Source of the DNA: Candidatus Saccharimonadota bacterium
GTDB taxonomy: Bacteria > Patescibacteriota > Gracilibacteria > BD1-5 > UBA2023
Length of the DNA: 32,000 nt
Assembly: GCA_046350815.1 (NCBI GenBank)
Contig: JAXLZO010000001.1
Coordinates: 690,001-722,000 of the forward strand
Direction: 5' to 3'
Positions 3,409 to 22,152 of this stretch are shown piece by piece. Under the pieces are notes generated by a model that worked only from the letters and a program-made list of their open reading frames with translations, searched no databases and was not told the DNA's origin. Each line of letters opens with the position of its first letter. The first letter of the stretch is position 1. The position numbers and the translations under genes were made by a program.

Positions 3409-3452
3409 GATCAATAAAGAAGCTATTATATTGACAAATTCATTTCACGAAA

Positions 3453-4100
3453 TTAATATCGAATCAGAAAATTTGGATCTGGGCAGATATATTTCATGTT
3501 CGGTACATCCTCTACCCAACAATACCCTCTGTTTTTCCATGTATCCATCTCCTCTCCAGTGAATATCTGTAAATGAAGATGTACAAACCAATTTCCATTT
3601 TCACTTGTATTTCCGAGTTTTCCGATGGATTCTCCCTGTGGTATGATGGATTGTGTATTGAGAGATTCATATGAGAGATGTCCATAGAGTGCATAGAAGA
3701 CGGTTCATCAGAGTGTGTATCGTATAATCATGTATCAGCCATAGTTGCCATCTCATTCTTCATAACCACGTTCATATACCTCTCAATGAAGTGGATTAAA
3801 AAGAGATAATGCCTCTGTTGGTGTAATATCAACACCAAGATGATAAATTCTTCCTTGCTGTTGAATATGAGTTCCCTTGAGAATATGTGATCTGTTCTCA
3901 AGATATCATCCGAGTCACCATATCTTCCCACTATTTTTCAGATGTTCACGATTGTAGTTATTCATATCATCCATGTTTCTCGGATCTACACTGAGAAAAT
4001 CCTCATTTGAGTAGTCAAATATATATGGATCTCATTGAGTTTGTTCTCCAAAAATTGGGAATATGGTAATGTTTTTTTGTAAAAGTGGATAGGGATACAT
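3453..4100 (-). CDS. M23 (LytM/lysostaphin-type) metallopeptidase domain protein
   Basis: This frame is invisible in the standard-code track because it holds 8 in-frame TGA. I scanned every codon from 3453 to 4100 and found no TAA/TAG. Motifs: YHLGVDI (HxxxD), YALYGHLS, GKLGNTSENGNWFVHLHLQI (HxH). By my hand count, 8 of its 24 Gly are TGA. Confidence 0.8.
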
Positions 4101-4110
4101 ATTTGAAAAA

Positions 4111-5178
4111 TTATAGATGAAGTATACTGAGATACGCTTCAGAAATATTTTGTGTGATTTTCCGGGTATCAATAGAACCAAGTAGGAAGCTCTTGAGTTG
4201 CTGTGCGTCGCCCGGATATCCATCTACGGCAAGATTTTGATTGTGAGTATCGGGGATATCTTCAATATCAACGTGATTATAGAGGTATCCGCCTCTTTTG
4301 TCATGTGTGTGAAATTGTATGCCACTTTCAAGTCCGAATTTGAGTGATTGTATGGGGTTTGATTGTTCGTTACCGATGATGCGATATTCGCCATAGATGT
4401 TATGAATACCTCTGTGCATTGCGAAACTTGCGACGGATGTTCCAAGTATGCTCATGAGGCCCTTGCCACGATGCTCTCTACATGTGCTTGCTTCAGTGAT
4501 CTCTCCATGCTGTATGACAGTTCCATCTTCAAGAACATGAGGTTGATGACTGTAGAGTATTGCTGCTACGAGATTCTGAGCTCGATCTCGTATTCATAGT
4601 GCAAAACTTCAACTTTGAGTGTCAATCACATCGCTTTGACATGCACTCTCACTCCAGCCAAATGGTCTCCACAAATGAGCAAGCTCGTGAGCTTCAAGTT
4701 GACTTGTGAGTTGAAATCCTTGTTGTTCCATATGATGAATACGATTGAGACTATGAGATTCAAAATCTCAAATTCTGTGTGCGATATCATCAATATATTT
4801 GCTATTCTTTGCTACTAGTGTATTCATAGTTGCCTCAGATAGATCACGGTCTCTGCGATTGAGCGCAAAAGTAACATACCAAAATGGTCGTTGGTTTCCA
4901 GGTGTTTGATCGAGATAATATGAGAATGTTCCACTAATGCGTTCGCAAAATCCCTCAATCTCTTTGATTTCATTTTGGTCTGCGATGAGTAGAGTTCTCA
5001 CAATAAGGCGTGATTGATGCGTCTCACGAAACTTGGCTATTGATTCTTTGATAAGATTTTGATATCGTTGTGGTTCATAGAGTGTAGCGCGATCCTCAAA
5101 TGATGCTCGATGGTAGGAACGATGCGGATTCCATCATGAATCGGATCCACTATATCCAGTAGCTTGACTGAGTGTCAT
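4111..5178 (-). CDS. GNAT-type acetyltransferase domain protein (355 aa)
   Basis: Pieces 4768-5001 and 4111-4455 are joined in one frame (verified row by row) from ATG 5176-5178 to TAA 4111-4113. The acetyl-CoA-site-like motif is CREHRGKGLMSILGTSVASFAM. The N-terminal roughly 200 aa are unassigned. Confidence 0.6.
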
Positions 5179-5187
5179 ATACTATAT

Positions 5188-5994
5188 GGCTCTAGACCAG
5201 AAGAAAGTAACTCATATACTCTCTTCTTATGATCCCATACAGCAAAATATCAGTTCACGAACTTAAAAAGATTATTAAGTGCTTTTGTGTGGATATTGAT
5301 ACCACAAAAACAAGCGAGCTTTTGGGATATAATCGAAAGACGGTCAACCATTATTTCTCTATCTTTAGGAAAATAATCTACACGAATCGTATTGAGGCTT
5401 TCAAAGAAAAGATAGGTTGAGAAATAGAAGTAGATGAAAGCTATTTCTGAGCCAAGCGAAAAAGATGATTTGCAGGAAAACTTAAACGATGAAGATGAAC
5501 CCTCAAACAGCCAGTATTTTGACTCATCAAGAGAAAAGATGAGAATGGAAGAGTAGAAATATATACAGAGATTATTCCGAATTGCAAAGCTGTAACACTC
5601 CGCCCTATAATACAGGGAAAAGTCAGTGCCCCATAATCCAAGGAAAAGTCAGTCTAGAGAATTCTATCCTATATTCGGATGGCTGGAAAGGATACGATGG
5701 TCTCGTAGATGTATGAATCGACAAGCACTTTCGAGTCAACCATGGTACAAGTGAATTCTCACTTGGGAATGGAATTCACATCAATGGGATTGAGAACTTC
5801 TGGAGTTTTACAAAGCGCCGATTGAACAAGTTCAACGGCGTGAAAGTAAACTTTCACCTTCATCTCAAAGAATGTGAATGGAGATATACCAAAGAAAGCT
5901 TTGAACTTGAGCAGGAACTTCTTACAATGATTAAAATCTTTTATAAAAAATCCAGAAAATCTTAGATATTTCTAAAATCTTCTGGTCTAGAGCC
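5188..5994 (+). mobile_element. IS1595-family (ISXO2-like) insertion sequence, 807 bp
   Basis: Perfect 17-bp terminal inverted repeats GGCTCTAGACCAGAAGA (5188-5204 and the reverse complement at 5978-5994) are flanked by the direct repeat ACTATAT (5181-5187 and 5995-6001). The internal ORF has IS1595-type motifs. Confidence 0.8.
5229..5965 (+). pseudogene. IS1595-family transposase, disrupted by a 26-nt insertion (frameshift plus TAA at 5634-5636)
   Basis: N-terminal part: ...EKIG-G-EIEVDESYF-G-AKRKR-G-FAGKLKR-G-R-G-TLKQPVF-G-LIKR..IIQGKVSAP*. In the +2 frame from 5642: GKVSLENSILYSDGWKGYDGLVDV-G-IDKHFRVNHG..INGIENFWSFTKRRLNKFNGV..HLKECEWRY. Deleting 5616-5641 restores one continuous ORF. Confidence 0.8.
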
Positions 5995-6052
5995 ACTATA
6001 TTTAGCAGGTAAGTGATCTGCTTGTACTCTCTTTTTTGTATAAATCACGAAA

Positions 6053-6081
6053 TTGACTTTTTTATGCTATTTGGATATTAT
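6053..6081 (+). promoter_or_regulatory. sigma-70-like promoter
   Basis: TTGACT (6053-6058), a 17-nt spacer, then TATTAT (6076-6081), about 22 nt upstream of ATG 6104. Confidence 0.45.
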
Positions 6082-6103
6082 ATTGTTCTATTTAGAACAT
6101 TTT

Positions 6104-6739
6104 ATGAGAAAAATATCAGAGATTATCGAGCAGGTCGTAGTGAATCAACCATTTCTTGAAGAGGCACTTGCATTTGGGTTTCTCAATCTGACCGCATTCG
6201 CCGAGTATATCCGCCCGCATGTCGAGCGAGAATCTCAGAAGTCACTCTCGGTACATGCTATTAAGATGGCACTCTCACGCATGGAGAGGCCAAAAATTAT
6301 CCGTGAAACCATATCTCATCGGTCGTTTCACAATATCACTACTCGCGTTGGCTTGTCTATCATGACTCTACTGCGTTCATCAAAAAGCGTTGAGATTGTC
6401 AGTGGTTGTATGACTGAGATGAGACGGAAAAATGATCATTTTTTTACCATGATAGAGGGTGTGCAGGAGATAGATATTATCTATGATACCTCTACTCACG
6501 AGCATCTCCTCTGTCAGATTCCAGCATCTCTTCAGCTCCTCTGTGTGCCCGACTTGGCGCTTATTTCTATTGGTCTTTCGGATATCGAGATATCTACTCC
6601 ATGACTTTTTTATTCCATTACTAAGCAACTCGCATTCTATGGGATCAATATTATTCAGGTGCTTTCGACCTATCACGAATTCGGAATTATCATAAGTGTT
6701 AAAGATCTCAAAAAGGCCGTATCGGTACTAATGGGTTAA
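6104..6739 (+). CDS. ACT-domain-containing protein (211 aa)
   Basis: MRKISEIIEQVVVNQPFLEEALAFGFLNLTAFAEYIRPHVE... continues through TGA 6602-6604 to TAA 6737-6739. The C-terminal GLFYSITKQLAFYGINIIQVLSTYHEFGIIISVKDLKKAV looks like an ACT ligand-binding fold. Family call from memory. Confidence 0.5.
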
Positions 6740-6741
6740 AT

Positions 6742-6765
6742 AAATCTCCATATCGATGGAGATTT
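6742..6765 (+). terminator. intrinsic terminator
   Basis: AAATCTCCAT-atcg-ATGGAGATTT hairpin immediately after the stop codon, followed by ATTT. Confidence 0.65.
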
Positions 6766-6799
6766 ATTTGCAAAATTGTAATACTTCTCTACTATAATA

Positions 6800-6819
6800 A
6801 CCATACCCTATGGTATGGT
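6800..6819. promoter_or_regulatory. perfect 8-4-8 palindromic operator (candidate CsoR-family box)
   Basis: ACCATACC-ctat-GGTATGGT lies directly downstream of a TATAAT hexamer (6793-6798) and 21 nt upstream of the Cys-rich micro-ORF. Confidence 0.5.
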
Positions 6820-6839
6820 ATAAATTCAATCAAAAAAAT

Positions 6840-6914
6840 ATGACAAATTGCTCATGCAATCCATGCAAGTGTACGACATGTACATGCAGTGGATGCAAAT
6901 GCTCACAGCGGTAG
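6840..6914 (+). CDS. 24-aa cysteine-rich, metallothionein-like peptide
   Basis: MTNCSCNPCKCTTCTCSGCKCSQR has 9 Cys in 24 residues in CxC/CxxC spacing. An operator lies upstream and two hairpins downstream. No obvious SD. Confidence 0.5.
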   Translation: MTNCSCNPCKCTTCTCSGCKCSQR

Positions 6915-6946
6915 TTAACCGCTAAAAAACCTCCCGGATGGGAGGT
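6907..6946 (+). terminator. two tandem hairpins after the micro-ORF (weak terminator candidate)
   Basis: AGCGGT-agtta-ACCGCT (6907-6923) and ACCTCCC-ggat-GGGAGGT (6929-6946). No T-run follows. Confidence 0.35.
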
Positions 6947-6974
6947 GCCTCTGGACAAGGCATTGACAGTATAT

Positions 6975-6992
6975 CCATACCATAGGGTTTTG
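6975..6992. promoter_or_regulatory. degenerate second copy of the operator, upstream of the csoR-like gene
   Basis: CCATACC-atag-GGTTTTG: the left arm and spacer match the reverse complement of the 6800-6819 site, and the right arm matches 5 of 8. It lies in the spacer after a TTGACA at 6963-6968. Confidence 0.3.
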
Positions 6993-7011
6993 CACTTTTT
7001 CTTTCCATCTC

Positions 7012-7287
7012 ATGTCAACCTACCAAGATCGACTTTCACTCAATATCAAAAAAGCTCAATGAACCCTCAAGAAGGTGCAAGAGATGATTGAGAGTGATCA
7101 ATACTGTGCTGATATTGCCCATCAGGTCAATGCAACTATGGGATTATTGCAGAGTGTTAATCGTGAACTTCTCAAACATCATCTCTCTTGTTGTGGAGTC
7201 AAGGCACTCTCGAGTGAGGATATTGCCAAGAAAACCGAATTTATCGATGAATTGGTACGCACATGGGATGTTGCGACACGAAAATAA
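7012..7287 (+). CDS. csoR: CsoR/RcnR-family metal-sensing transcriptional repressor (DUF156)
   Basis: MSTYQDRLSLNIKKAQ-G-TLKKVQEMIESDQYCADIAHQVNATMGLLQSVNRELLKHHLSCC... The Cys in YCAD plus H-x3-C in HHLSC match the Cu(I)-type C-H-C ligand pattern. One TGA (Gly) falls in the conserved GQ/GT position. Confidence 0.8.
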
Positions 7288-7292
7288 CCCCT

Positions 7293-7748
7293 ATGTCTCT
7301 TATGAATACCAAAAAATATTATGCACTTATTCTTCGATACCTCGGCATGAGCTTTATTACAGGAGCAGTAGCACATGGATTTTTCTCTGGATACCGATCA
7401 CTGTTTACTGCAATTTTTGGGTTAGTGTTTTTCTTGAGTGCATTATTTCTTGAAAAAGAAAGTGCTTCGGTGACTCGTTATCAGATTTTTTGGAATACTC
7501 TCCTTGCTATTGGCGTTGGTATCTTCACGGGAGGTATTCAGCATTTTCCGGATTCACCTGAGCGAAGCGTTTGGATTGTGCCACTTGGTTTCATTATTGC
7601 AGCTTTTTCTTTTTCAAGGTCGCAAATGATCCACTATACTCCTCGAGATACCAAATGGCTCACCTTCACGAGTCTGGCTGTAGGAGTGGGAAGCGTTGTA
7701 ATGTTCGCTGCGCTTGAGTCATTTTCTATTATTCCTCATAATCATTAA
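7293..7748 (+). CDS. integral membrane protein, about 4 TM segments, unknown function
   Basis: MSLMNTKKYYALILRYLGMSFITGAVAHGFFSG... has hydrophobic segments throughout and ends PHNH. It starts 6 nt after the csoR stop. The start is chosen at the first ATG after that stop; an upstream ATG at 7263 would overlap csoR. Confidence 0.6.
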   Translation: MSLMNTKKYYALILRYLGMSFITGAVAHGFFSGYRSLFTAIFGLVFFLSALFLEKESASVTRYQIFWNTLLAIGVGIFTGGIQHFPDSPERSVWIVPLGFIIAAFSFSRSQMIHYTPRDTKWLTFTSLAVGVGSVVMFAALESFSIIPHNH

Positions 7749-7757
7749 TTATCTTTT

Positions 7758-8396
7758 ATGAAATCAAATCAAACCTGTCCATGCGGTCCAGACTGCAAAT
7801 GTGGGCCAAATTGTCCGTGTGAGAAGACGGGGTCTTGTGGCACTTGTCCAACCGAATCGAAGAAATGTGCTCGAAGCTGTTGTCATTTCTGGGCGATTCT
7901 CTGTGTGATCTCTTGCGTCTTCTGTGCATGAGTCATGATCTGGGGTGCTTATGTGATGCATCGAGATCTCATCAAGATGGAGGCTCTTATGAATCCATCC
8001 AATGCGTCTCTCATGACCCAATCATCTCCTTCTAAAAATATCTCATCTACCCAAGGTCAAATGAATGATCCTATGCGTGAGCATTGTAAAATGATGCCAA
8101 ATATGATGGGCTGTGAGGTATACCGAGGAGGACAAGATGCTCGTACGATGGATCCTATGGATATGAGTATGATGCAAATGGGTCAAATGCTCGCAGGCAA
8201 AATGGGAGATGATCTCGATCGTGCCTTTATCGAGGGTATGATTCCACATCATCAGGCAGCCGTTGATATGGCTCGCTATCTCACTGGCGCAAAACATCCA
8301 GAGCTTCAGAAAATGGGGCAAGATATCATCGCAGCTCAGTCCAAAGAAATCGATCAAATGAAAAAGTGGCAAGCTGAATGGGGATACGCAAAATAA
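7758..8396 (+). CDS. fusion protein: N-terminal Cys-rich (metallothionein-like) segment, one TM helix, Met-rich linker, C-terminal DUF305 domain
   Basis: MKSNQTCPCGPDCKCGPNCPCEKTGSCGTCP..CCHFWAILCVISCVFCA-G-VMIWGAYVM..MMPNMMGCE..MDPMDMSMMQMGQM..FIEGMIPHHQAAVDMARYL..AAQSKEIDQMKKW. The 7758 piece and ORF 7935-8396 are in one frame, joined by TGA 7929-7931. Confidence 0.75.
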
Positions 8397-8416
8397 AAAC
8401 TCACTAGTGAGTTTTT
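8395..8416. terminator. bidirectional intrinsic terminator
   Basis: AAAAACTCAC-ta-GTGAGTTTTT. The stop codon of the convergent gene (8415-8417) overlaps its right arm. Confidence 0.65.
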
Positions 8417-9293
8417 ATTTTCTTTGCTGGAGGTATCCGAGATATCTCTGCCACTGATGGATTGGCATCATTGCAAGCTCTATGTGATAGGTTTCTGGTC
8501 TGATGTACTTTACTTGACGAGCAATATCGATAAATCTGCTTAGGTCATTATAAAATCTCTGACGGTCTGCGCTACTATATCCTTCGATACGTTTATAGAA
8601 TGCATATCTTTGGTCATTTACTATTCACATTTGTACATAGGCTCGCTTGAGTCACTCAGAGAAAAATGCAAGGATTTCTTCTTGTAGGTCATCATAGACA
8701 CAGACCTCATACATAGACCTACCTCATCATTTGCCGTAGTAGTCCATGCCGATGATATGATTGCGAAAATGTGTGAGCTCATGAGTAGTGGTAGAGCTGG
8801 TATCATGTCCCGAGCAGTTGACACAAACAGGGATCTCTTTCCCATCAAAGTGGAGCACTTTGTAAAAACCACTTGCACGATCTTCTTGGGAGAACTGCTC
8901 TTTCCTCTTCGCAAACTTGGCAAAGAGGAGATCTTGCATATTTGAAAACTCAATGATGAGAACTGGTCAATGATTTTTGATATCCATGGTGCCGACAAAC
9001 TTTTCTGGTCGAAATCCAAAGAGTCGCCCTACTTGTACCTGAGATGATTCGGCTCCATGTTTTTTCAAGAAATAAGATATCCCATCTGAATATCTCTGTA
9101 TTCGATGAAATGCTTGGATAAAATACCCATGGAGCACCTCGTCGACTTGTGAGAGGACTTTTTGTTTGATAGCGAGTATATCATAGTTTTCTTTTCATGC
9201 GAGTATCTTTTCCGCTGATTGGATTGCTTCGGATCCGTTCTGGATAGACGCAACATAGTCATTTCGCTGCTGTTCGTATGTTGATTTGTTCAT
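8415..9293 (-). CDS. HExxH-motif protein (putative zinc metallopeptidase), 292 aa
   Basis: One frame runs from ATG 9291-9293 to TAA 8415-8417 through 7 TGA, checked block by block. Motif: CVNCSGHDTSSTTTHELTHFRNHI. No signal peptide. Family not recognised. Confidence 0.55.
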
Positions 9294-9327
9294 ATCAGAG
9301 TATTATTTATATAATGAAATTTCTGTC

Positions 9328-9347
9328 AATACCTATTCATAGGTATT
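9328..9347. promoter_or_regulatory. perfect 9-2-9 palindrome in a divergent intergenic region (candidate operator)
   Basis: AATACCTAT-tc-ATAGGTATT lies between the HExxH gene (start 9293) and the Fic gene (start 9414). Confidence 0.35.
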
Positions 9348-9413
9348 CTGTTACAGTATTTTGACTTTGAGTTTAGATTATGATACCATTTGTCCGTAAG
9401 ATATATTTTATAT

Positions 9414-10448
9414 ATGGAAAATATTATTTCTCCTGATGATGACTGAAACATATCAAAAGACCAGTATGTAAAAATATCATTGATGAATACTGGGGTGAGA
9501 GTATCGAAGATTTTGAATATGACTCACTTTTTAGAGATTCGAAATAATCCAGAATCATTTGAAAAATGGATCCAAGAAATGAACTATAAGACTTTTATTC
9601 ATTTGCTTATTCAATGGAATGGTATATTACGTGGATCCAAAAAAATAGATCGAGATATTGATGGGGTAAATGTCGCTGTTGCTTCTTGGGTTCCACCGAG
9701 TGAGCATATAAAATCAAAAATACTCAGAAAGACATTTGATGTAGTAAAAAAACTAGAAAATCCAAACGATAGAGCAGACTTGCTAACATATATGCTCCAG
9801 TTTCTTCATATATTCAGCGATGGTAATGGGAGGCTTGGTCGGTTTATTCATTCATTGCTAGATGGTACGAATAATCTCAATGCTCAGTATCTTGCTAAGA
9901 TATTAGATCATAATATGGAGGGTAACGATGGCTATCGGGTTTATAAACATACAAAACATATAAATCCTGAAAAATATTATCCATATTTTTCAATATTCGT
10001 GAACTCTCTCTTATTCGAAGAGAGAGAATACCAAACTAAGCCCTGAGTTCCATATTTAAATTTAGATGGAATTTGGAATCAAAAAATTGCTCGTGATTGG
10101 GAAGAAAAATCACCAAAATTTGCATCAAGAGTTATTCAAATCCTTGCTGAAATGGATGAACAATCTGGGGGATCGGATAAATTTAATGGGGTAGTTTTGT
10201 TAAAATTTCTGATCGAAAAATGACTCGATTCTTCTCGTTTTATAGATAATTCAAATGTAAGTTTTATTCGATTAGTGGTAGATGAAGAATTTTTATTGTC
10301 ACTTTCCGGAGAAGATATTGCTCGATTGTATACTATTCATGATGATGTAAAATTATTTTTACTTGATCGACTGATAGATGTCTATATGTCACCTGATGAG
10401 TACAGACTTTCGAATGGGGTACTCTTACGAGATATCATGAGAATATAA
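9414..10448 (+). CDS. Fic/DOC-family protein (putative AMPylase/NMP-transferase), 344 aa
   Basis: Canonical Fic motif HIFSDGNGRLGRF (HxFx[DE]GNGRxxR). The ORF runs from ATG 9414 through 3 TGA (9444, 10044, 10221) to TAA 10446-10448, verified codon by codon. Confidence 0.85.
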
Positions 10449-10505
10449 AACTTACCTAAAATTAGGCTATGACGGAATTTCACGAGCACACCTTTTAAAC
10501 TTTTT

Positions 10506-10916
10506 CTATTGTCCCCATACTATCTCTCGTACACTTCGTCAAATCTCCTCCACACACTCAAACTCCACCACCTCACGAGCCACCGATCTGAATCTCTCAT
10601 GTCCGAGTCACTGCTTGATCACAAGTACGATCGGGAGTCACATTTCCTGTGCTCGCTCGAGCTCGAGGATCATCCCTTTGCTCTCTGTCTCTGACTGAAT
10701 ATACGCGATCATGAGGTCAGATCATTGCATTGCTTTGAGACAATACGCATAGTTGTCATCGGCAGTCATATGCTGCTCCTCGAAGTAGGGGATGAGCCAG
10801 AGTGAGCAAAATACTATATGTCCGAGTGACTCGAGTGTATCGGTGATGGTGCGCAAGGCGATGGTGAGTGATGGGATATCTTCGCCAGTGTAGCGATGAG
10901 AGAGGAATATCTTCAT
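10506..10916 (-). CDS. nucleoside 2-deoxyribosyltransferase-like / TIR-like Rossmannoid protein (136 aa)
   Basis: MKIFLSHRYTGEDIPSL... (beta-A-like start) and ...SDLMIAYIQSETESKGMILELERAQEM-G-LPIVLVIKQ (acidic Glu after a Gly loop, as in NDT/TIR-like folds). 4 in-frame TGA; ends in TAG 10506-10508. The start could instead be 10976. Confidence 0.45.
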
Positions 10917-11250
10917 AAATATCGAGAAAAACGAGAGGAAAATGTGAGTATTGAGATGTATTGTATGTATTATCATATTTTTTCATATTTCCTTTCATCT
11001 CAAAAATGAGGAATAAAATATTTTTTATTATTATTATTATGTAAGTGATCTTAGAATTAATCTAAGAAAAACCATGGTATATGCAAAACTTATTTTACTA
11101 TTTTTTCTTCCCATTCTCACAATTTCCCATATACTCACCTAGCTAAAATATACACATTCTTGAAGTATTTCTTTTAATACTCAAACAAATTAAAGGGCAA
11201 CTAATTGTTGCTCAGCCCTTTGATTGTTCTTTTGAGTATGAAAAGGTGTG

Positions 11251-11304
11251 TATGTTTTAGCGAACTTGAGCGCATTGGTTGCCCTTTTGTTTCGCTAAAA
11301 CATA
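11251..11304. repeat. 14-bp perfect inverted repeat with a 26-nt loop upstream of mod
   Basis: TATGTTTTAGCGAA (11251-11264) pairs with TTCGCTAAAACATA (11291-11304). The loop contains GTTGCCCTTT (11278-11287), which is complementary to AAAGGGCAAC (11192-11201). Confidence 0.6.
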
Positions 11305-11343
11305 TTTTCAATTCAAGTCGTCATTTTAGCATTTACTTTGTAG

Positions 11344-13035
11344 ATGCTTTTTTGTATGGATACTCAGCTCAAAAAGTGAAGATTTACCGAATATGGCAAC
11401 CGCATCGGACTGATGCTCGCCCAGTCGGGAGAGGTAGTGCTTTCGTTTCCGTTCAAGGATGCGATCCTCGAGGGTGGGATGAGTCGTGAGGATACGGGGA
11501 GAGAGGAGAGATTCTTTCATCTTTCCCAAGATCGCTCAGATATCGATACACTTCAGGAGCGAAAGGTGCTGACGGGTTTTCGTCGTATCGACTCGAGCGG
11601 GGATCATGAGATCACGAGTCCTGAGGAGGTTGAGTTCTTCGATAATGAGTGAGAGCTTCGCTCTAATCTCCTGATCAAAGGCAATAATCTCGTTGCACTC
11701 TACACCCTCCGTGATCGCCTCGCGGGCAAAGTGAAGCTCATCTATATCGATCCACCCTACAATACGGGCAATGATGGATTTCGCTATAATGACAATTTCA
11801 ATCACTCGACGTGGCTCGCATTTATGAAAAATCGTCTCGAGATAGCGAGAGAATTACTCAGAGATGATGGAGTCATATTTGTGCAGTGTGATGATAATGA
11901 ACAAGCGTATCTCAAAGTATTGATGGATGAAGTGTTTGGGAGAGAGAATTTTGTCGGTGATTATATATGGAAGAACAAACTTTGATGATGAAATGATTCT
12001 AGTATTTTTGTTTCTGAGCATGAGTATACTGTTGTATTTGCGAAAGTTATTTCCAATATAACTCCATTTACTGAATTAAATGTAGATAATGGAAAATATT
12101 TGTACGAAGATGAATTTGTGCACGAGCGAGGAAAATATGCAATAGAAGCACTCTACCGTAGCTCTATACAATTTTCAGAAAGTTTATTTTACCCAATAGA
12201 AGCACCAGACGGTACGTTGATTTACCCAAATGAGAGCGATAAAAATAGTGATAAGCACATATGGAGATGGTCAAAGCAAACATTTGAGAAGAAAAAATCA
12301 GAAGGAAGAATAGAGTTTAAAAAAACAAAGAATGGTTGGCGTGTTTTTAGTAAACAGTATTTTTTGCAGGATGATGATTGAAATGAACGGCGATTAAAGA
12401 GTCGCAGTATTATTGATTTTATAGGGAATAGACAGTGAACAGAGCATTTAAAGGATATGTTTGGTGGTAAATTTTTTAATAATCCAAAACCAGAAGAGAT
12501 CATTGAATATTTTGTTCAAATCTCCACTCAACCCTGAGACATCGTCCTCGACTACCACCTTGGCTCCGGCACGACCGCCGCAGTGGCTCACAAGATGGGG
12601 AGACGGTGGATCGGGATTGAGCAGATGGACTATATCCAGGATATTGCGAAGGTGAGACTCCAGAAAGTGATCGAGGGAGAGCAAGGTGGGATATCGAAGA
12701 ATGTTGGGTGGCAGTGAGGAGGGGAGTTTGTGTATCTAGAGCTCAAGACCTATAACGGTGAGTATCTCGAGAGGATCGAGCTTGCTCGCACCAAGGAGGA
12801 GCTTCATCGGGTCTATGCGGATATGGCGCGCAATGCTTTTCTCCAGTTTTGGTTCGATCGTCGAGACTTCGAGCGAGATGGATACAAGGCACTCCCGCTT
12901 GAGGAGCAACGAGTCAAGCTCCGTGAGATCCTCGATCTCAATCACCTCTACCTCAACTACCAAGATATGCGTGATGCTCGTCATCGCGTGTCGCCGATAG
13001 ATCAGTCCCTCACCGATGCGTTCTATGGCAGCTAA
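11344..13035 (+). CDS. mod: Type III restriction-modification DNA methyltransferase (Mod, N6-adenine)
   Basis: VLSFPFKDAILEGG..NLLIKGNNLVAL..GKVKLIYIDPPYNTGNDGFRYND (motif IV DPPY), W.[59 protein letters not shown] (motif I). 9 in-frame TGA. I verified row by row that no TAA/TAG occurs before 13033-13035. The start could be 11356. Confidence 0.9.
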
Positions 13036-15796
13036 CAAACAATGATCACCGCAGAGGGTCGGGGCGACTCTTGGGGATTTTCTCTTTGCCCGTATCCGAG
13101 ACGATGCGGTATTTCAGGTTTGGACGAAGCACTATGATATCCCGAGCTTCATCACGGACAATCTCCATCCGTCCAAGCAGCTGCGACCATACCAAGAGGA
13201 AGCGGTCAAGTATTTCATCTACCTCTTCGAGTCCGGAGATCGTGAGGCGTGCAAGCATCTCCTCTTCAATATGGCGACCGGTACTGGCAAGACGCTCGTG
13301 ATGGCGTGTGTGATCCTCTATCTCTACGAGCGTGGGTATCGTCATTTTGTTTTTCTCGTGCATCAGGTGCAGATCCTCGCACAGGCGAGGAAGAATTTCA
13401 CAGAATATAGCTTCGACAAATACCTCTTTCATCCAAATGGGATCTCGTTCAACGGTCGCAAGGTACGATCGCGATGTATCGAGAGCTTCGAGGAGGCAAA
13501 TGATGGTGATATCAATATCATGTTTTTATCCACTTCGCTTTTCTACAATCGTATCCGAGAAGACGGGGAGAATCGCCTCTGTGCAGAGGATTTTGCCACT
13601 CGAGATGTGGTCATCATCGCGGATGAGGCTCATAGGCTCAATGTCGAGACTCGCAAGACTAAATCAGCCACCGAAGAGGAAGAAGTGCTCAACTGGGAGT
13701 CGGCGGTGATGGGTGCGATCTCGGCTCGTCCCTCCAATATGCTCATCGAGTTCACGGCGACGGTGGATCTCTCCAATCGCAATATCCATGCAAAGTACCG
13801 TGACAAGCTCGTGTACAAATATGATTTCCTCGATTTCAATCGGGCAGGATACTGCAAAGATGTGCAATTTCTCTACAACAATGAGACCCAAGTCGAAGAT
13901 CAGAAGCGGCTTCTTATCGTCCATGCGGTGGCACTCTCTCAGTATCGCAAGATCCTCTTTCGCCTCTTGGTGGGCGTGGAGATCCATCCGGTCATACTCG
14001 TCAAGTCTCGTCGTATCGCCGATAGTGAGGCAGATCGGGAGTTTTTCCACTCGGTCATATCCGATCTCTCACCTCGAGATTTTGACAAGCTCCGCCAGAC
14101 GGAGAATGATGAAAATCATCTCATATCAAATATCTTCGGTGAGCTCTCGGCTCGTCGTATCTCTATCGAGCAATTTATCGCAGATATTCGCCATGATTTT
14201 GCCCTCGAGAATACGCTCATCTACAATAGCCAGAAAAAAGAACGATCCGAACTCCTCGCAGATCTCGATCATGCTCGCAATCGCGTACGAGCGATATTCT
14301 CAGTCAACGCTCTCAATGAGTGATGGGATGTCCTCTCGCTCTTTGATATTATCCATTTTGATATCGGTGCGGACAAGAAAGTCTCACTCCAAGATATTCA
14401 GCTCATCGGGCGTGGGGCGAGATATTGTCCATTTTCGCTGCCTGAGGATTTTCAGATCGGTGGACTCTTCGGGTCGTATGAGAGCGTGCGTGACAAGCGC
14501 AAATTTGACCAAGTGCGATATGAGAGTGCTCGCATCCTCGAGACTTTTTTCTATCATTTCGTCAAGACAGGGATGTTTCTCGAAAATCTCCAGCAAGAGC
14601 TCATGGGCGAGGGGATCATCAGCGAGTGAGTCGAGCGACGCACGATCCGTCTCAAGTCGGGGTTTCTCCAGTCTGATACCTGGCAAAATGGATTTGTCCT
14701 CGTCAATCGCACCGAGAAGCGTACTCGGACGACGGATGAAGAGCGAGAAGCGACTTTTGATAAGGTGCTCAAAGTCTCGTCGTATACGCTCCGATCACGA
14801 GGTCTGACGAACCGTGAAGAGAATATGATCCTCTCAGATATAGCGGTCGGAGAGATATCGATCGTTCGGGATTTTAGTCGACATATCCTCTACAAGGCGT
14901 TGGTGAGAGCAGAGAATGGATTTTTTCGATTTGGTCACCTGAGAGAGCATCTTCCGGATATCGAGAGCATCGATGAATTCATCGACTCATATCTCTCGCG
15001 ATACAGTGTCACCTATCAGTATGAGCGCGGTAAGGATATCGAGCACCTTGATCCGTATGAGAAGCTCCAGCTCTTGGTCGGAGTGATCCTCCCAGAGATC
15101 CGCAAAGTGATCGATCGGAGTCTCCCAAAAGTGGTGGGGAGTACAGTGTTTCGTCCGGTATCGATCTCACAGGTATTCGAACAAGAGAAAAATCTCCATT
15201 TTATCTCTTTTCCTATTCCTGATCCTCTCACGGGTGAAGTGACCTATACCAATAGCGATGAGAAATCAAAACCTCAGAGCGATCATGACAATCCCACTCT
15301 TGCACTCGATATCTCGAAGCGTGATTGGTACGTGTATGATGAGAGCTATGGGACGAGTGAAGAGAAAAAGTTTGTGAAGTTTATCGATTCAAAGGTATGA
15401 GCTCTCAGGTCTCGCTATCTGTGAGCAGAGATATTTCTCGTGCGAAATGAACTCGATTATTGGATGTTTGCTCCAAAGAGTGGCAAGAGGTTCTCTCCGG
15501 ATTTTCTTCTCTTTATCAATGATGTGGTGAATAAGAAACTCTACTATCAGTGTATATTTGAGGTCAAATGAGGTCATCTCCTCGAGATCGACTCCTGGAA
15601 AGAAGAAGCGATCCTTGATATTGACCGACTCTCCCAGATATCTCTCGACTCTCACGACGATGGGTGGTCACCAGAGCGAAGATCATATCTCGAGTGATAT
15701 GATGAGATCAAAAATATCGGATATAGTTTCTACAATAGTGAGATGCGAGATACCGAGTTTCGAGCGGAGTTCGATGAGAAAATGGGCTTGAGATAA
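13016..15796 (+). CDS. res: Type III restriction enzyme Res subunit (SF2 helicase plus C-terminal PD-(D/E)xK nuclease)
   Basis: LRPYQEEAV, MATGTGKTLVMA (motif I), IIADEAHRL (DEAH), ALNE-G-WDV, LIGRGARY (motif VI), and C-terminal SPDFLLF...CIFEVK-G (nuclease). Pieces 13271-14323 and 14765-15400 and the tail are joined by 7 TGA. It overlaps the mod stop by 20 nt (11 nt if the ATG at 13025 is used). Confidence 0.9.
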
Positions 15797-15883: not shown

Positions 15884-16024
15884 ATGAGAAAGAAGGGGTA
15901 CGTCGTTATTTTGTTGTTGAATATGGTATTGCTCACAGCTCTATCTGTGCTCTATATTTACCAGCAGCAACAGAGTAAACATAAAAATATCAATCCAGTT
16001 ATTAATATAATAACAATAGAATAA
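15884..16024 (+). CDS. 46-aa single-TM peptide
   Basis: AAGGAG (15871-15876) lies 7 nt before the ATG. The product is MRKKGYVVILLLNMVLLTALSVLYIYQQQQSKHKNINPVINIITIE. It has its own terminator. Confidence 0.6.
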   Translation: MRKKGYVVILLLNMVLLTALSVLYIYQQQQSKHKNINPVINIITIE

Positions 16025-16032
16025 TTTGGAAT

Positions 16033-16060
16033 AAAAAGCTCATAGACATATGAGCTTTTT
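16033..16060. terminator. intrinsic terminator (symmetric A-run/T-run)
   Basis: AAAAAGCTCATA-gaca-TATGAGCTTTTT. Confidence 0.7.
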
Positions 16061-16087
16061 CTTTATCTTAATAGGATAGAGTATTCC

Positions 16088-16114
16088 TTGACAAAATATT
16101 TTCTTTCTTACAAT
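16088..16114 (+). promoter_or_regulatory. sigma-70-like promoter
   Basis: TTGACA (16088-16093), a 15-nt spacer, then TACAAT (16109-16114). Confidence 0.4.
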
Positions 16115-16141
16115 CTTTCTTCGTTGCAAATCCGCAACACC

Positions 16142-16276
16142 ATGGAGAAAATAATGGATGCTAAAAAAGTCGTTTCCTTTACGAAAAATAATCCTTTCGC
16201 GTACCGTTACGCAGATGGTTATGTAAGTATTGCGATTGCAGTGCTCATCGGTTTGGTCTTTTTCGGGTTAAACTAA
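16142..16276 (+). CDS. 44-aa C-terminally anchored single-TM peptide
   Basis: MEKIMDAKKVVSFTKNNPFAYRYADGYVSIAIAVLIGLVFFGLN. An alternative start is ATG 16154, preceded by GGAG. A strong terminator follows. Confidence 0.5.
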   Translation: MEKIMDAKKVVSFTKNNPFAYRYADGYVSIAIAVLIGLVFFGLN

Positions 16277-16299
16277 TTCAGTTTGTATACAAAGGAGAA

Positions 16300-16323
16300 A
16301 AAACCGGTCGTTTGACCGGTTTT
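16300..16323. terminator. bidirectional intrinsic terminator
   Basis: AAAACCGGTC-gttt-GACCGGTTTT. The stop codon of the convergent gene (16323-16325) abuts its right arm. Confidence 0.7.
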
Positions 16324-17087
16324 TAATTTCCTAGAGTTTTTAGGATGGAGTTAAGAATCGTACTGGATCCAGTGAATTGAAAAGTATTATCCTTGAGTTC
16401 GCCCTTTGCACCTATTTTTTCGATACTTGCTTTTAGAGAACTGAGCGTATCTTTGTTTGATCATGTGATGGTTCATTTGAGTATATTCCCTTGAGATTGG
16501 ATGTTATAACGAACAAAATCCCCATTTACTTCACGATACCCACTATAATTTGCATCGGATGTTGGCTTGCTGTCTTGTCTCATAATAACTGTAGGACGAT
16601 CAAACATTCGATCCATCATTACTTGATGTGATCTTTGCATCCTCTGCATATCTTGCATCATATCATTGAAATCCTGATCGACAGGTCACATAGGCATCCA
16701 GTTGCTATGACGATAGTATGATGGTCGATCATCTAATTCTTGCATCATACCCATGAAATTCTCATAGCGATCGTTTGCGCGATGGATCTTCTTCTCATAA
16801 CATCCGATCGTGACTGCAAGGAGAAGAATGAGTGCTATCACAAGCCACCAAGCCGGATGAAGCGTGCGACACATACTAGAACAACGACCGAGGAGTGAGG
16901 ATTTTGTTGCTGGTGATGTGTTGTTATCCGTGTTCGTGCTATCCTCCGTTTTGATAGATTCCGATGTGGATGTGTTCGCACTTGACTCGGATGCTTCATT
17001 ATGAGAAGAAGCATCCGTCGTGTCTCGTGAAGTAGCCTCTTCGATTGATGTTTCCTTCTCTGGAGAGGAATGATCTTTTTTATGCAT
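16323..17087 (-). CDS. membrane-anchored protein with a low-complexity N-terminus and Met-rich segments (254 aa)
   Basis: Pieces 16686-17087 and 16473-16661 plus the tail are in one frame through 3 TGA. The N-terminus is S/T/E/D-rich, followed by the TM helix WWLVIALILLLAVTIGCY, then MGMMQELDD and NDMMQDMQRMQRSHQVMMDRMF. Confidence 0.6.
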
Positions 17088-20949: not shown

Positions 20950-22152
20950 ATGGATATGGGAAATTTTGATTCCATGTTTGGAGATCGTCGCAATATTAGC
21001 GATGTAACACGTGATAAGTATGATGTATCGAAGGAAGATACACAGAAGAATGCTCAAGAAATAGCTATTCTTCAATCAAAGAGAGAAGCGATGCAATCTG
21101 ATAAGAAAAGACTGGAAACTCAAAAAAGTTATCTTGTATCTCAACAAAAAGAAGCTCAGGCAGCTCGTGATAATGCAAAAGCTCGGTTTGATCAGGCTGC
21201 AGCATCCGTTCAGAAAGAGCTGTGATCTTCCAATCCAGATATTCGTCGGAATGCAGAAAATCGTGTTGCTGCTGATAAACAGTATCTTGAGGAGACTGAA
21301 GCAACGTTGAAGCGAATAACCAGAGAAATTGAAAAAGTTACAGTACTGCTTGCTCCCATTGTAGATTTGGATAAGCAACTAGCTTTATTAAAAACTAAGT
21401 ATGATACAAGTCGGTGACAATACCTTGCAAATAATGAACAAGCAAATCAAGAGCTTGCACAATATCAAATACAAAAAGAGCAAACAGAGATTAATATTCT
21501 TAGTATGAGTCTTTCAGTAAAAGAAGCAGAATTAAAGGGGGCTCGAGAAAAAATGAATCCATTACTTGCTCAACAAAAAGAAGCTCAGGCAGCTCGTGAT
21601 AATGCAAAAGCTCGGTTTGATCAGGCTGCAGCATCCGTTCAGAAAGAGCTGTGATCTTCCAATCCAGATATTCGTCGGAATGCAGAAAATCGTGTTGCTG
21701 CTGATAAACAGTATCTTGAGGAGACTGAAGCAACGTTGAAGCGAATAACCAGAGAAATTGAAAGGAAACAGCAACTTTTGGGTCCACTTATTCAGCAAGT
21801 GGCAAGCTTGCATACACAGAAGCAAGACCATGATCAACGGTTAGCATCTTTGATGCCAAAAAAAGATGTGATTATCAGAGTTGCTTCGCAACCCCTTGCA
21901 AAGCCTGAGAAAGTGTTATGAGGAGCGGAAAAAAGGCTCCATGATAAAACAATAAAAATTGCAAAAAATGTTGATCCAGTCTTGGTAGCGAAGGCGTTAA
22001 GTACATATGCACAGAAGAAAAATATTCCTTGAAATCAAAGTATTACTGCTGAACAGATTCGCTCAGATCTAAACCTTGGAAACTATAAAAATCTTATTAT
22101 TTGACCAAACACACTAGCGGCTCTCGATAATTTTAACAGTCAGAATGCGTAA
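20950..22152 (+). CDS. coiled-coil protein with an internal duplicated 64-aa module (400 aa)
   Basis: ATG 20950 to TAA 22150-22152 through 7 TGA, verified row by row. The product is largely Q/E/K/A-rich and helical. It contains the two repeat copies listed below. Confidence 0.65.
21142..21334 (+). repeat. direct repeat copy 1 (193 bp)
   Basis: Identical by eye to 21571-21763. It encodes QQKEAQAARDNAKARFDQAAASVQKEL-G-SSNPDIRRNAENRVAADKQYLEETEATLKRITREIE. Confidence 0.9.
21571..21763 (+). repeat. direct repeat copy 2 (193 bp)
   Basis: Offset by 429 bp (143 codons) from copy 1, so it is in the same reading frame. Confidence 0.9.

Follow-up and report, generated by a model that had tools for sequence, protein, structure and literature searches.

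The locus analysed here lies in a stretch of 32,000 nucleotides from a Candidatus Saccharimonadota bacterium of the Gracilibacteria lineage (assembly GCA_046350815.1, contig JAXLZO010000001.1, positions 690,001 to 722,000), which we call the window, and takes up about 7.4 kb of it. Read with only TAA and TAG as stop codons, the block holds five open reading frames (ORFs): a gene for a protein with an HExxH motif (8415-9293, - strand; 292 aa), a Fic-domain gene (9414-10448, + strand; 344 aa), a gene for a small protein resembling nucleoside deoxyribosyltransferases (NDTs; 10506-10916, - strand; 136 aa), and the mod (11344-13035, + strand; 563 aa) and res (13016-15796, + strand; 926 aa) genes of a Type III restriction-modification (R-M) system. 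An earlier reading of the letters alone (the original prediction) had described the block as a defence island and had singled out the HExxH, Fic and NDT-like genes as an unassigned trio in which to look for an undescribed system. Its ORF coordinates were exact once only TAA and TAG were counted as stops; a table-11 reading of the region gave short, fragmented ORFs. Our data favour another picture of the block. It is probably a mosaic, strain-variable hotspot around a conserved resident gene, with units that are independent of each other and do not form a single system.

Related loci were retrieved via homologues of each window protein. One of them, L004 (Logan SRR22388166), shares 92-97% nucleotide identity with the window and is colinear with it except for two differences. 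Window positions 3409-6783 are missing from L004, where 69 bp are found instead, and an additional 3.2 kb stands in L004 between its NDT-like and mod genes, exactly at window position 11029/11103. Two proteins are encoded in this region of L004 (11911-14801), one of 281 aa with DUF3800 (PADLOC DUF3800_VII, 3e-22) and one of 602 aa that is an ATPase-TOPRIM nuclease of the Old family (PADLOC Old, 1.2e-29; Pfam AAA_15, AAA_21 and OLD-like_TOPRIM). An SLH gene lies just beyond res in L004, so that a DUF3800-Old-mod-res block is placed between the NDT-like and SLH genes. The loci L016 and L017 (metagenome ERZ650309; 98-99% identity) have the same HExxH-Fic-NDT arrangement as the window. After window position 11029, L016 continues with a different gene (L016 1330-1875), which is cut off by the end of the contig. 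Its product contains a DUF4172 domain (Pfam, 1.4e-24) and the canonical inhibitory motif TSEIEG and is, judged by these features, a typical Fic-type protein of class II. The L016 breakpoint falls in the hairpin GAGGAATAAAATATTTTTTATTCCTC, the right arm of which is replaced by (TTA)n in the window, with (TTA)5 at 11025-11040. According to the blastn breakpoints, the hotspot breakpoint upstream of the NDT-like gene corresponds to 73 bp in the window (11030-11102).

The loci L005 (JGI, 160-kb contig) and L006 (GCA_020632315.1) are more diverged, their shared proteins being 76-92% identical to those of the window. Both have the same flanks, with APH-like, EndoIII, CsoR, p161 and DUF305 genes on one side and p151, TatD and RluD genes on the other. 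The NDT-like gene is present in L005, L006 and L012 without a nearby HExxH, Fic or R-M gene, and in L005 (5 bp) and L006 its stop codon lies within a few bases of the bidirectional terminator of the DUF305 gene. Beyond the NDT-like gene, where the window has the R-M system, L005 and L006 encode two lipoproteins together with a GT4 glycosyltransferase. Between the two lipoprotein genes of L005 (7054-7200, - strand) we found a 49-codon remnant of the mod 5' end with an in-frame TAA and 78% amino acid identity to residues 1-49 of the window Mod. Because of this pseudogene, we conclude that the R-M system decayed in, or was lost from, the slot in this relative. In L012 and L013, an NT5C gene, a 178-aa gene, an SLH protein gene and the NDT-like gene are followed directly by the DUF305 terminator, and both slots are empty.

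We propose that the slot on the R-M side turns over, the R-M system having decayed in one relative and extra defence genes having been added in sister strains. The recognised defence genes at the variable locus are the R-M system in the window, Old and DUF3800_VII in L004, and DUF4172/Fic in L016. As in defence islands and other variable hotspots, core flanks (the DUF305 module, the NDT-like gene and p151-TatD-RluD) bracket strain-variable slots. Unlike such regions, the window slots are not marked by an integrase, a tRNA gene or direct or flanking repeats, and the slot in L005 and L006 holds lipoprotein and GT4 genes and no defence genes. A repeat search likewise found no flanking target-site duplications or inverted repeats at either indel. 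The term defence island therefore suits the R-M slot, which is strain-variable and in sister strains carries Old/DUF3800 or DUF4172-Fic at the same breakpoint, but not the whole block as one unit.

The gene that stays in place between the slots encodes the 136-aa protein, which had been described as NDT/TIR-like and counted among the unassigned conflict genes. Its Pfam matches remained below the gathering score (PF05014, 18.1 against 28.8; DUF4406, 19.3 against 22), PHROG 355 matched at 1.4e-6, and PADLOC gave no match. The AlphaFold2 (AF2) model had a predicted local distance difference test (pLDDT) score of 90.7 and a predicted TM score (pTM) of 0.85. When this model was compared with the PDB by Foldseek, 49 of the 50 top matches belonged to the NDT superfamily, the remaining one being E. 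coli MurR at rank 47. They included MilB (4ohr, 2e-6), the CMP N-glycosidase BcmB (4jen), the NDTs of L. leichmannii and Chroococcidiopsis and human DNPH1, with 9ezk and 8rpt among the entries (probability 1.0; TMq 0.6 up to 0.80). No TIR protein was among the top 50 Foldseek matches, and neither Pfam nor PADLOC gave a TIR match; we rejected the TIR-like reading on structural grounds. Of the earlier description, the NDT fold thus held and the TIR part did not, and the gene is no longer unassigned, since the structure places it in the NDT/MilB/DNPH1 superfamily of N-glycosidases.

A profile alignment to CtNDT placed GMILELERA opposite GVMVELGMA and thereby E85 on the nucleophile E88; F4 was placed on Y7 and S6 on A9. 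Phe4 takes the position of the beta1-loop Tyr (Y7 of NDT) that enforces 2'-deoxyribose specificity, so the protein lacks the residue expected of a deoxy-specific enzyme. In MilB, Phe17 sets the preference for CMP, and the F17Y exchange reverses the specificity from CMP to dCMP (PMC4081090). The N-terminal F-L-x-x-x-aromatic segment of the 136-aa protein resembles the F17...F22 motif of MilB (PMC4081090). The protein shares its fold and the aligned Glu nucleophile (E85) with MilB, BcmB and BlsM (N-glycosidases of CMP and hydroxymethyl-CMP), DNPH1/Rcl and NDT. It differs in having Phe for the Tyr of the deoxy-specific enzymes and, by the profile alignment, an invariant Cys59 in the column of a conserved Asp. 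It also differs from MilB, with Thr at the position of Arg23 and no linked MilA/ThyA-like gene.

The NDT-like gene had dN/dS values (ratio of nonsynonymous to synonymous substitution rates) of 0.10-0.21 against three orthologues, the same range as DUF305, TatD, RluD and EndoIII. Purifying selection acts on it as on the housekeeping genes around it, and it is a conserved resident gene. An NCBI protein with the same sequence (100% identity) comes from a metagenome-assembled genome (MAG) of a 'Candidatus Gracilibacteria bacterium' (locus tag U0518_03610). The family of the 136-aa protein is small and restricted to close relatives; a tblastn search of 50,697 phage records gave no match. From fold and active-site residues we infer a ribonucleotide or ribonucleoside N-glycosidase or transferase with a somewhat divergent active site. 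Because fold, synteny and selection agree, we regard the gene as a resident metabolic gene, probably of nucleotide salvage, and not as a defence component. With its Glu nucleophile kept, the enzyme would cleave the base from (ribo)nucleoside 5'-monophosphates or swap bases. Its purpose would be salvage in a cell that has no nucleotide synthesis of its own, and it would be no defence gene.

As to the genetic code, the original prediction had assumed code 25, in which UGA encodes glycine. We aligned 19 pairs of window genes and orthologs and counted the TGA columns in which the partner codon differed. The partner codon was GGN (Gly) in 25 of the 33 mismatched columns and TGG in none. Because GGN predominated and TGG never stood opposite TGA, we conclude that UGA is read as Gly, as had been assumed. 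Homologues from Logan, ENA and JGI (P0001, P0002, P0016-P0019 and others) have Trp where the window has Gly, e.g. GKWWGRS versus GKGGGRS. In these sources, the UGA codons of code-25 organisms were evidently rendered as Trp (code 4), which could mislead alignments and structure predictions. The input for structure prediction was the database protein P0001 (97% identical), in which Trp at UGA positions is a translation artefact.

Type III Mod proteins methylate one strand of a short asymmetric site with S-adenosylmethionine (AdoMet), and the Res2Mod2 complex cuts foreign DNA after ATP-dependent communication between unmethylated, inversely oriented sites. The window Mod matched Pfam N6_N4_Mtase (5e-48) and PADLOC MTase_III (PDLC03635, 3.7e-150). 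Its DPPY motif at residue 136 lies ahead of the AdoMet motif HLGSGT at about residue 410, which is the beta-class order of an N6-adenine methyltransferase. Res matched Pfam ResIII (7.6e-28) and PADLOC REase_III (PDLC03651, 7.6e-98) over positions 23-823 of 873. It carries the superfamily 2 (SF2) helicase motifs GTGKT89, DEAH203 and QLIGRGAR462 (QxxGRxxR) and, near the C-terminus, the nuclease motif PD828...EVK851 (PD-(D/E)xK). Both genes are on the + strand, mod directly ahead of res and overlapping it by 20 nt; neither gene contains an in-frame TAA or TAG, and in-frame UGA codons occur nine times in mod and seven times in res. With both subunits near full length against the PADLOC profiles and all motifs intact, the claim of a complete Type III pair was confirmed, and by its sequence it is an intact, ordinary Type III R-M system. 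In gene order and overlap, the beta-class Mod, the SF2 and PD-(D/E)xK parts of Res and the near-full-length matches to hidden Markov models (HMMs), it is like the EcoP15I/EcoP1I-type systems. It is unlike them in its UGA (Gly) codons and in mod having no simple-sequence tract of the kind associated with phase variation, for which we searched the gene. Because of the in-frame UGA codons in both genes, expression and exchange of the system would be confined to code-25 organisms.

On the other side of the NDT-like gene, the HExxH and Fic genes are the content of an indel of 2,084 bp (8422-10505) with respect to L005. By blastn, window 6784-8421 corresponds to L005 10146-8511 and window 10506-10919 to L005 8505-8089, and the edges are clean (8421/8422 and 10505/10506). 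Both genes are absent from L005, L006 and L012. The left edge coincides with a palindromic bidirectional terminator after the DUF305 gene (8390-8421, both strands; inverted repeat I11, 16+16 nt, 100% complementary), with the HExxH stop codon inside its T-tract; orthologous DUF305 terminators are present in L005, L006 and L012. The two genes are transcribed divergently from a 120-bp intergenic region (9294-9413) with back-to-back promoter-like sites, both of which are consensus matches only: TTGACA-16-AATAAT (11/12) on the - strand for HExxH (9329-9302), and TTGACT-17-TACCAT with a TG on the + strand for Fic (9361-9389). We propose that this 2.1-kb segment is a lineage-specific insertion of two divergent orphan genes, which would be independent accessory cargo and neither parts of the R-M system nor partners of the NDT-like enzyme. 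A lower dS in the HExxH and Fic genes than in the flanks was considered as proof of recent transfer and discarded, because, by sliding-window identity, the CsoR module next to them is near-identical to L004 to the same degree.

The Fic protein carries the catalytic loop HIFSDGNGRLGR at residues 132-143, in agreement with the canonical HxFx(D/E)GNGRxxR, and passes the Pfam cut-off marginally (PF02661, 26.2 bits against 24), so that the intact motif reported earlier was borne out. The PADLOC SoFic profile matched at 6e-6 (23.9 bits) over positions 150-211 of 361 only. The NCBIfam SoFic model NF046030 gave 12.4 bits against a cut-off of 550, which leaves the protein outside that equivalog. The PDB entry 4rgl matched at 0.005, and VopS was among the weak matches. 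The recognisable part is a core of ~70 residues, and the C-terminal region of ~190 aa is without assignment. No inhibitory (S/T)xxxE(G/N) motif was found in the protein. The nearest sequence, THFLEI at residue 37, was considered as a class II inhibitory helix and is not canonical. Among ORFs of at least 25 aa between 8300 and 11400, an antitoxin with this motif was sought, and the only candidates were two out-of-frame ORFs (36 and 66 aa) that we judged spurious. The window Fic thus has the canonical loop of the SoFic-type class II Fic/Doc AMPylases, and its core matches Pfam and solved Fic structures; unlike them, it lacks a DUF4172/Fic_N domain, a canonical inhibitory motif and a recognisable winged helix-turn-helix, and matches over ~70 residues only. 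The extra gene of L016, in contrast, is typical of the DUF4172-type Fic proteins in its TSEIEG motif. We predict that the window Fic is an active AMPylase-type enzyme without a recognisable cis-inhibitory motif.

The only relatives of Fic that we detected were strain variants with 96-99% identity; tblastn of the 50,697 phage records and a scan of IMG/VR found none. For Fic, 10 nonsynonymous changes and 3 synonymous ones separate the window from L004 (dN/dS about 0.87), whereas HExxH has one amino acid change among 8 nucleotide differences (dN/dS 0.036). Six of the 10 nonsynonymous changes in Fic fall in residues 128-169, around the catalytic loop or shortly behind it, and include S135N at an x position; the loop in L004 (gene at 10001-11035) reads HIFNDGNGR. 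With so few changes, the pattern is compatible with diversifying as well as with relaxed selection.

These properties bear on the possibility that HExxH and Fic form a two-gene toxin-regulator or abortive-infection module that was acquired as a unit, the HExxH protein restraining or activating an uninhibited Fic AMPylase. Joint gain (or loss) as one clean 2,084-bp indel, the common divergent promoter region of 120 bp, and an intact Fic motif with no canonical (S/T)xxxE(G/N) either in Fic itself or in small ORFs near it would all fit such a module, and the 10 nonsynonymous and 3 synonymous changes in Fic against one amino acid change in HExxH would be compatible with a target-recognition protein in an arms race. 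However, a dN/dS near 1 from 13 substitutions fits relaxed selection or decay equally well, no relatives of Fic that could show co-variation were detected beyond near-identical strains, and no family or PADLOC model joins HExxH and Fic. Moreover, in all five other genomes the HExxH family is found with no Fic, and its neighbours there are mostly housekeeping genes (see below). We therefore consider a functional pair unlikely. A more specific form of it, in which an undescribed module limited to code-25 Gracilibacteria, with a new, fold-unmatched HExxH family controlling Fic, was inserted as a unit into a defence hotspot beside the R-M system, appears more doubtful still.

The HExxH protein has HELTH at residues 171-175, and HE.TH is invariant in 14 sequences, in support of the motif first noticed. 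The segment DDLQEEILAFFSE at residues 201-213 is invariant in the family as well. A word-indexed search found 14 proteins, all of about 290 aa and, where named, from Gracilibacteria; an exhaustive profile search found 12 members at E<=0.001 among 1.84 billion representatives. The window protein and the 13 scanned members match no Pfam, NCBIfam, PHROG or PADLOC family. Pfam matches at E<=5 over 13 members showed nothing consistent, Pfam revealed no informative fused domains in the distant profile matches P0035-P0037, and a scan of IMG/VR found no HExxH homologue. In the AF2 model, the motif lies on a helix (165-180), with a four-stranded sheet before and a Glu-rich helix after it; E196, E205, E206 and E213, which would be candidates for the third metal ligand, are invariant in the family, and residues 183-196 were modelled at a pLDDT below 50. 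This arrangement, an HExTH helix after a small beta-sheet and before a helix rich in invariant Glu, is like that of the zincin/gluzincin metallopeptidases. Unlike those, the family has no peptidase HMM match (13 members) and no zincin structural match: the best Foldseek E-values were 0.19 (PDB) and 0.09 (BFVD), and neither top match was a peptidase. Structural assignment, which had been suggested for both proteins, hence succeeded for the NDT-like protein and gave no significant match for the HExxH protein. The weak structural echoes of the model point to nucleotidyltransferase and RelA-SpoT folds (SpoT, TUTase and nucleotidyltransferase; E >= 0.09, TM 0.2-0.26); they are non-significant and we did not accept them as evidence. 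Our best guess is a putative minimal metallopeptidase of gluzincin-like type.

Five loci of GTDB species representatives (L007-L011) encode HExxH homologues, and no homologue of Fic, NDT, mod or res lies within 10 kb of any of the five. HExxH homologues adjoin KsgA and RsmB in L010, ABC-F/Lgt and beta-lactamase2/MetRS in L002, L003 and L009, and an 836-aa stand-alone ResIII/SNF2-type helicase and ribosomal protein S2 in L007. The family is a very small orphan family, found only in Gracilibacteria and mostly among housekeeping neighbours. In L007 (9986-10849; MAG GL51_DN_metabat_148), the homologue is split into two ORFs (114 + 153 aa), which may reflect a pseudogene or a sequencing error. L002 and L003 share an identical homologue (P0010), which is directly followed by beta-lactamase2 in L003; in L002 (9149-12751), the two are separated by three small ORFs, a methylase of EcoRI type and a GmrSD/HNH protein. 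The comparison of L002 and L003 reveals a second variable defence slot, beside a member of the HExxH family.

With these loci at hand, the idea that the whole block is a defence island in which the HExxH, Fic and NDT/TIR-like genes, all or in part, are an undescribed multi-gene defence system beside the R-M system can be weighed. Conflict systems are known to include NDT-like and Fic domains. The adjacency to the Type III R-M system, the addition of Old/DUF3800 or DUF4172-Fic at the same locus in sister strains, and weak PADLOC matches of Fic to SoFic, PDC-S04 and PDC-S24 would also agree with it. On the other hand, the NDT-like gene is kept in three lineages without the other genes and evolves like a housekeeping gene, its product has the NDT/MilB/DNPH1 fold and not that of TIR, and HExxH homologues in the five other genomes never occur with Fic, NDT or R-M homologues. 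Nor does the architecture suggest one transcription unit, given that the genes alternate between strands, HExxH and Fic have promoter-like sites of their own, and terminator-like hairpins stand at the DUF305/HExxH junction and downstream of res. PADLOC, run on the code-25 proteins as had been proposed, identified the full R-M system and gave weak matches for Fic, but was blank for HExxH and the NDT-like protein. We consider a multi-gene system of this kind highly improbable.

The trio of the original prediction thus fails as one system because its genes do not co-occur: the NDT-like gene stands alone in L005, L006 and L012, HExxH stands alone in L007-L011, and Fic was found only in near-identical strains. 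The NDT-like gene fails on structure as well. Most of what had been named as grounds for refutation applies to the trio, the HExxH homologues being found mostly in housekeeping contexts, with the qualification that defence-like genes adjoin two of the five other HExxH loci.

Another possibility is that Fic, HExxH or both are effectors against the bacterial host of a presumably episymbiotic bacterium of the Candidate Phyla Radiation (CPR), serving host manipulation and not phage defence. Relatives among the Gracilibacteria and Absconditabacteria are described as predatory or episymbiotic, with reduced genomes (PMC8080830). Fic AMPylases are well known as effectors that act between cells, the weak Fic matches include VopS, and the HExxH family is restricted to Gracilibacteria. 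By inspection of both proteins and their neighbourhood, however, we saw no signal peptide, secretion-system gene or delivery domain. On balance, we give the effector reading little credence.

We return to the mosaic hotspot with independent units, against which several observations weigh. HExxH stands beside Fic in every genome with Fic, all of these being strains 96-99% identical to the window block. That the HExxH and Fic segment is a lineage-specific insertion and not the remainder after three losses is inferred, its direction resting on parsimony and composition. The roles of both proteins are read from their motifs alone, and the HExxH model reached a moderate pLDDT of 70 and matched no known zincin fold. 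Defence-like neighbours occur at two of the five other HExxH loci (EcoRI-type methyltransferase and GmrSD in L002/L009; the ResIII/SNF2 helicase in L007), and the family may on this account have a conflict role. For the resident enzyme, the profile alignment places the family's invariant C59 at the conserved Asp column (D62 of CtNDT, D72 of LlNDT, D78 of MilB and D80 of DNPH1), with D53/D54 5-6 residues upstream and an alignment gap nearby; given Cys59 at this column, its chemistry may differ from that of the NDT, DNPH1 and MilB models.

Taken together, the locus is a worked example of accessory and defence gene turnover in a code-25 CPR genome, with a conserved anchor and hotspots on both sides. 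It reveals no new defence mechanism. The R-M system and the hotspot architecture are of known kinds; the new items are minor, namely the orphan HExxH family and the MilB-like resident enzyme. An R-M system written with UGA as Gly would circulate only among code-25 organisms, and a conserved MilB-like nucleotide N-glycosidase may serve salvage in organisms unable to make nucleotides.

The boundaries given in the original prediction, the terminator of a metal module on the left (8390-8421) and two micro-genes on the right, were found as described. The micro-genes are small transmembrane-protein ORFs on the + strand: one of 46 aa (15884-16024), followed by a terminator-like hairpin at 16033-16060, and one of 44 aa (16142-16276), which ends beside a hairpin called on the opposite strand (16299-16324). 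Neither ORF (15884-16276) had a blastn match in relatives, and they were not found in L004, L005 or L006. The sharp change of composition inside the block was also recovered: Fic is AT-rich (32.5% GC; 24.6% at third codon positions, GC3) and res is GC-rich (47.9%; GC3 55%), compared with 39.4% GC for the window. Scans of the window for tRNA genes and Rfam families gave nothing.

The metal module, the left-hand anchor of the hotspot, consists of the DUF305 gene (7758-8396, + strand) and an upstream CsoR-type repressor gene (7012-7287). The N-terminus of the DUF305 protein is rich in Cys and resembles metallothionein (CPCGPDCKCGPNCPC...); a hydrophobic segment comes next. Further upstream lies a second strain-specific indel of 3.4 kb (3409-6783), absent from L004, L005 and L006, which encodes a GNAT protein (4111-5178), a fragment of an IS1595-type transposase and an ACT-domain protein (6104-6739). 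The transposase fragment (5489-5965; C-terminal part only; Pfam DDE_Tnp_IS1595, 1.2e-10) lies between two perfect inverted repeats of 18 nt, TGGCTCTAGACCAGAAGA, at 5187-5204 and 5978-5995, and window positions 5187-5995 look like a decayed or miniature insertion sequence (IS) element. L006 has a fuller IS1595 copy with 53% identity between DUF305 and p161. Downstream of the block, a gene at 20950-22152 (+ strand) encodes a coiled-coil-like protein of 400 aa with an exact internal duplication of 64 aa (QQKEAQAARDNAKARF...TREIE), the copies of which start at residues 65 and 208 and, in the DNA, at 21142 and 21571.

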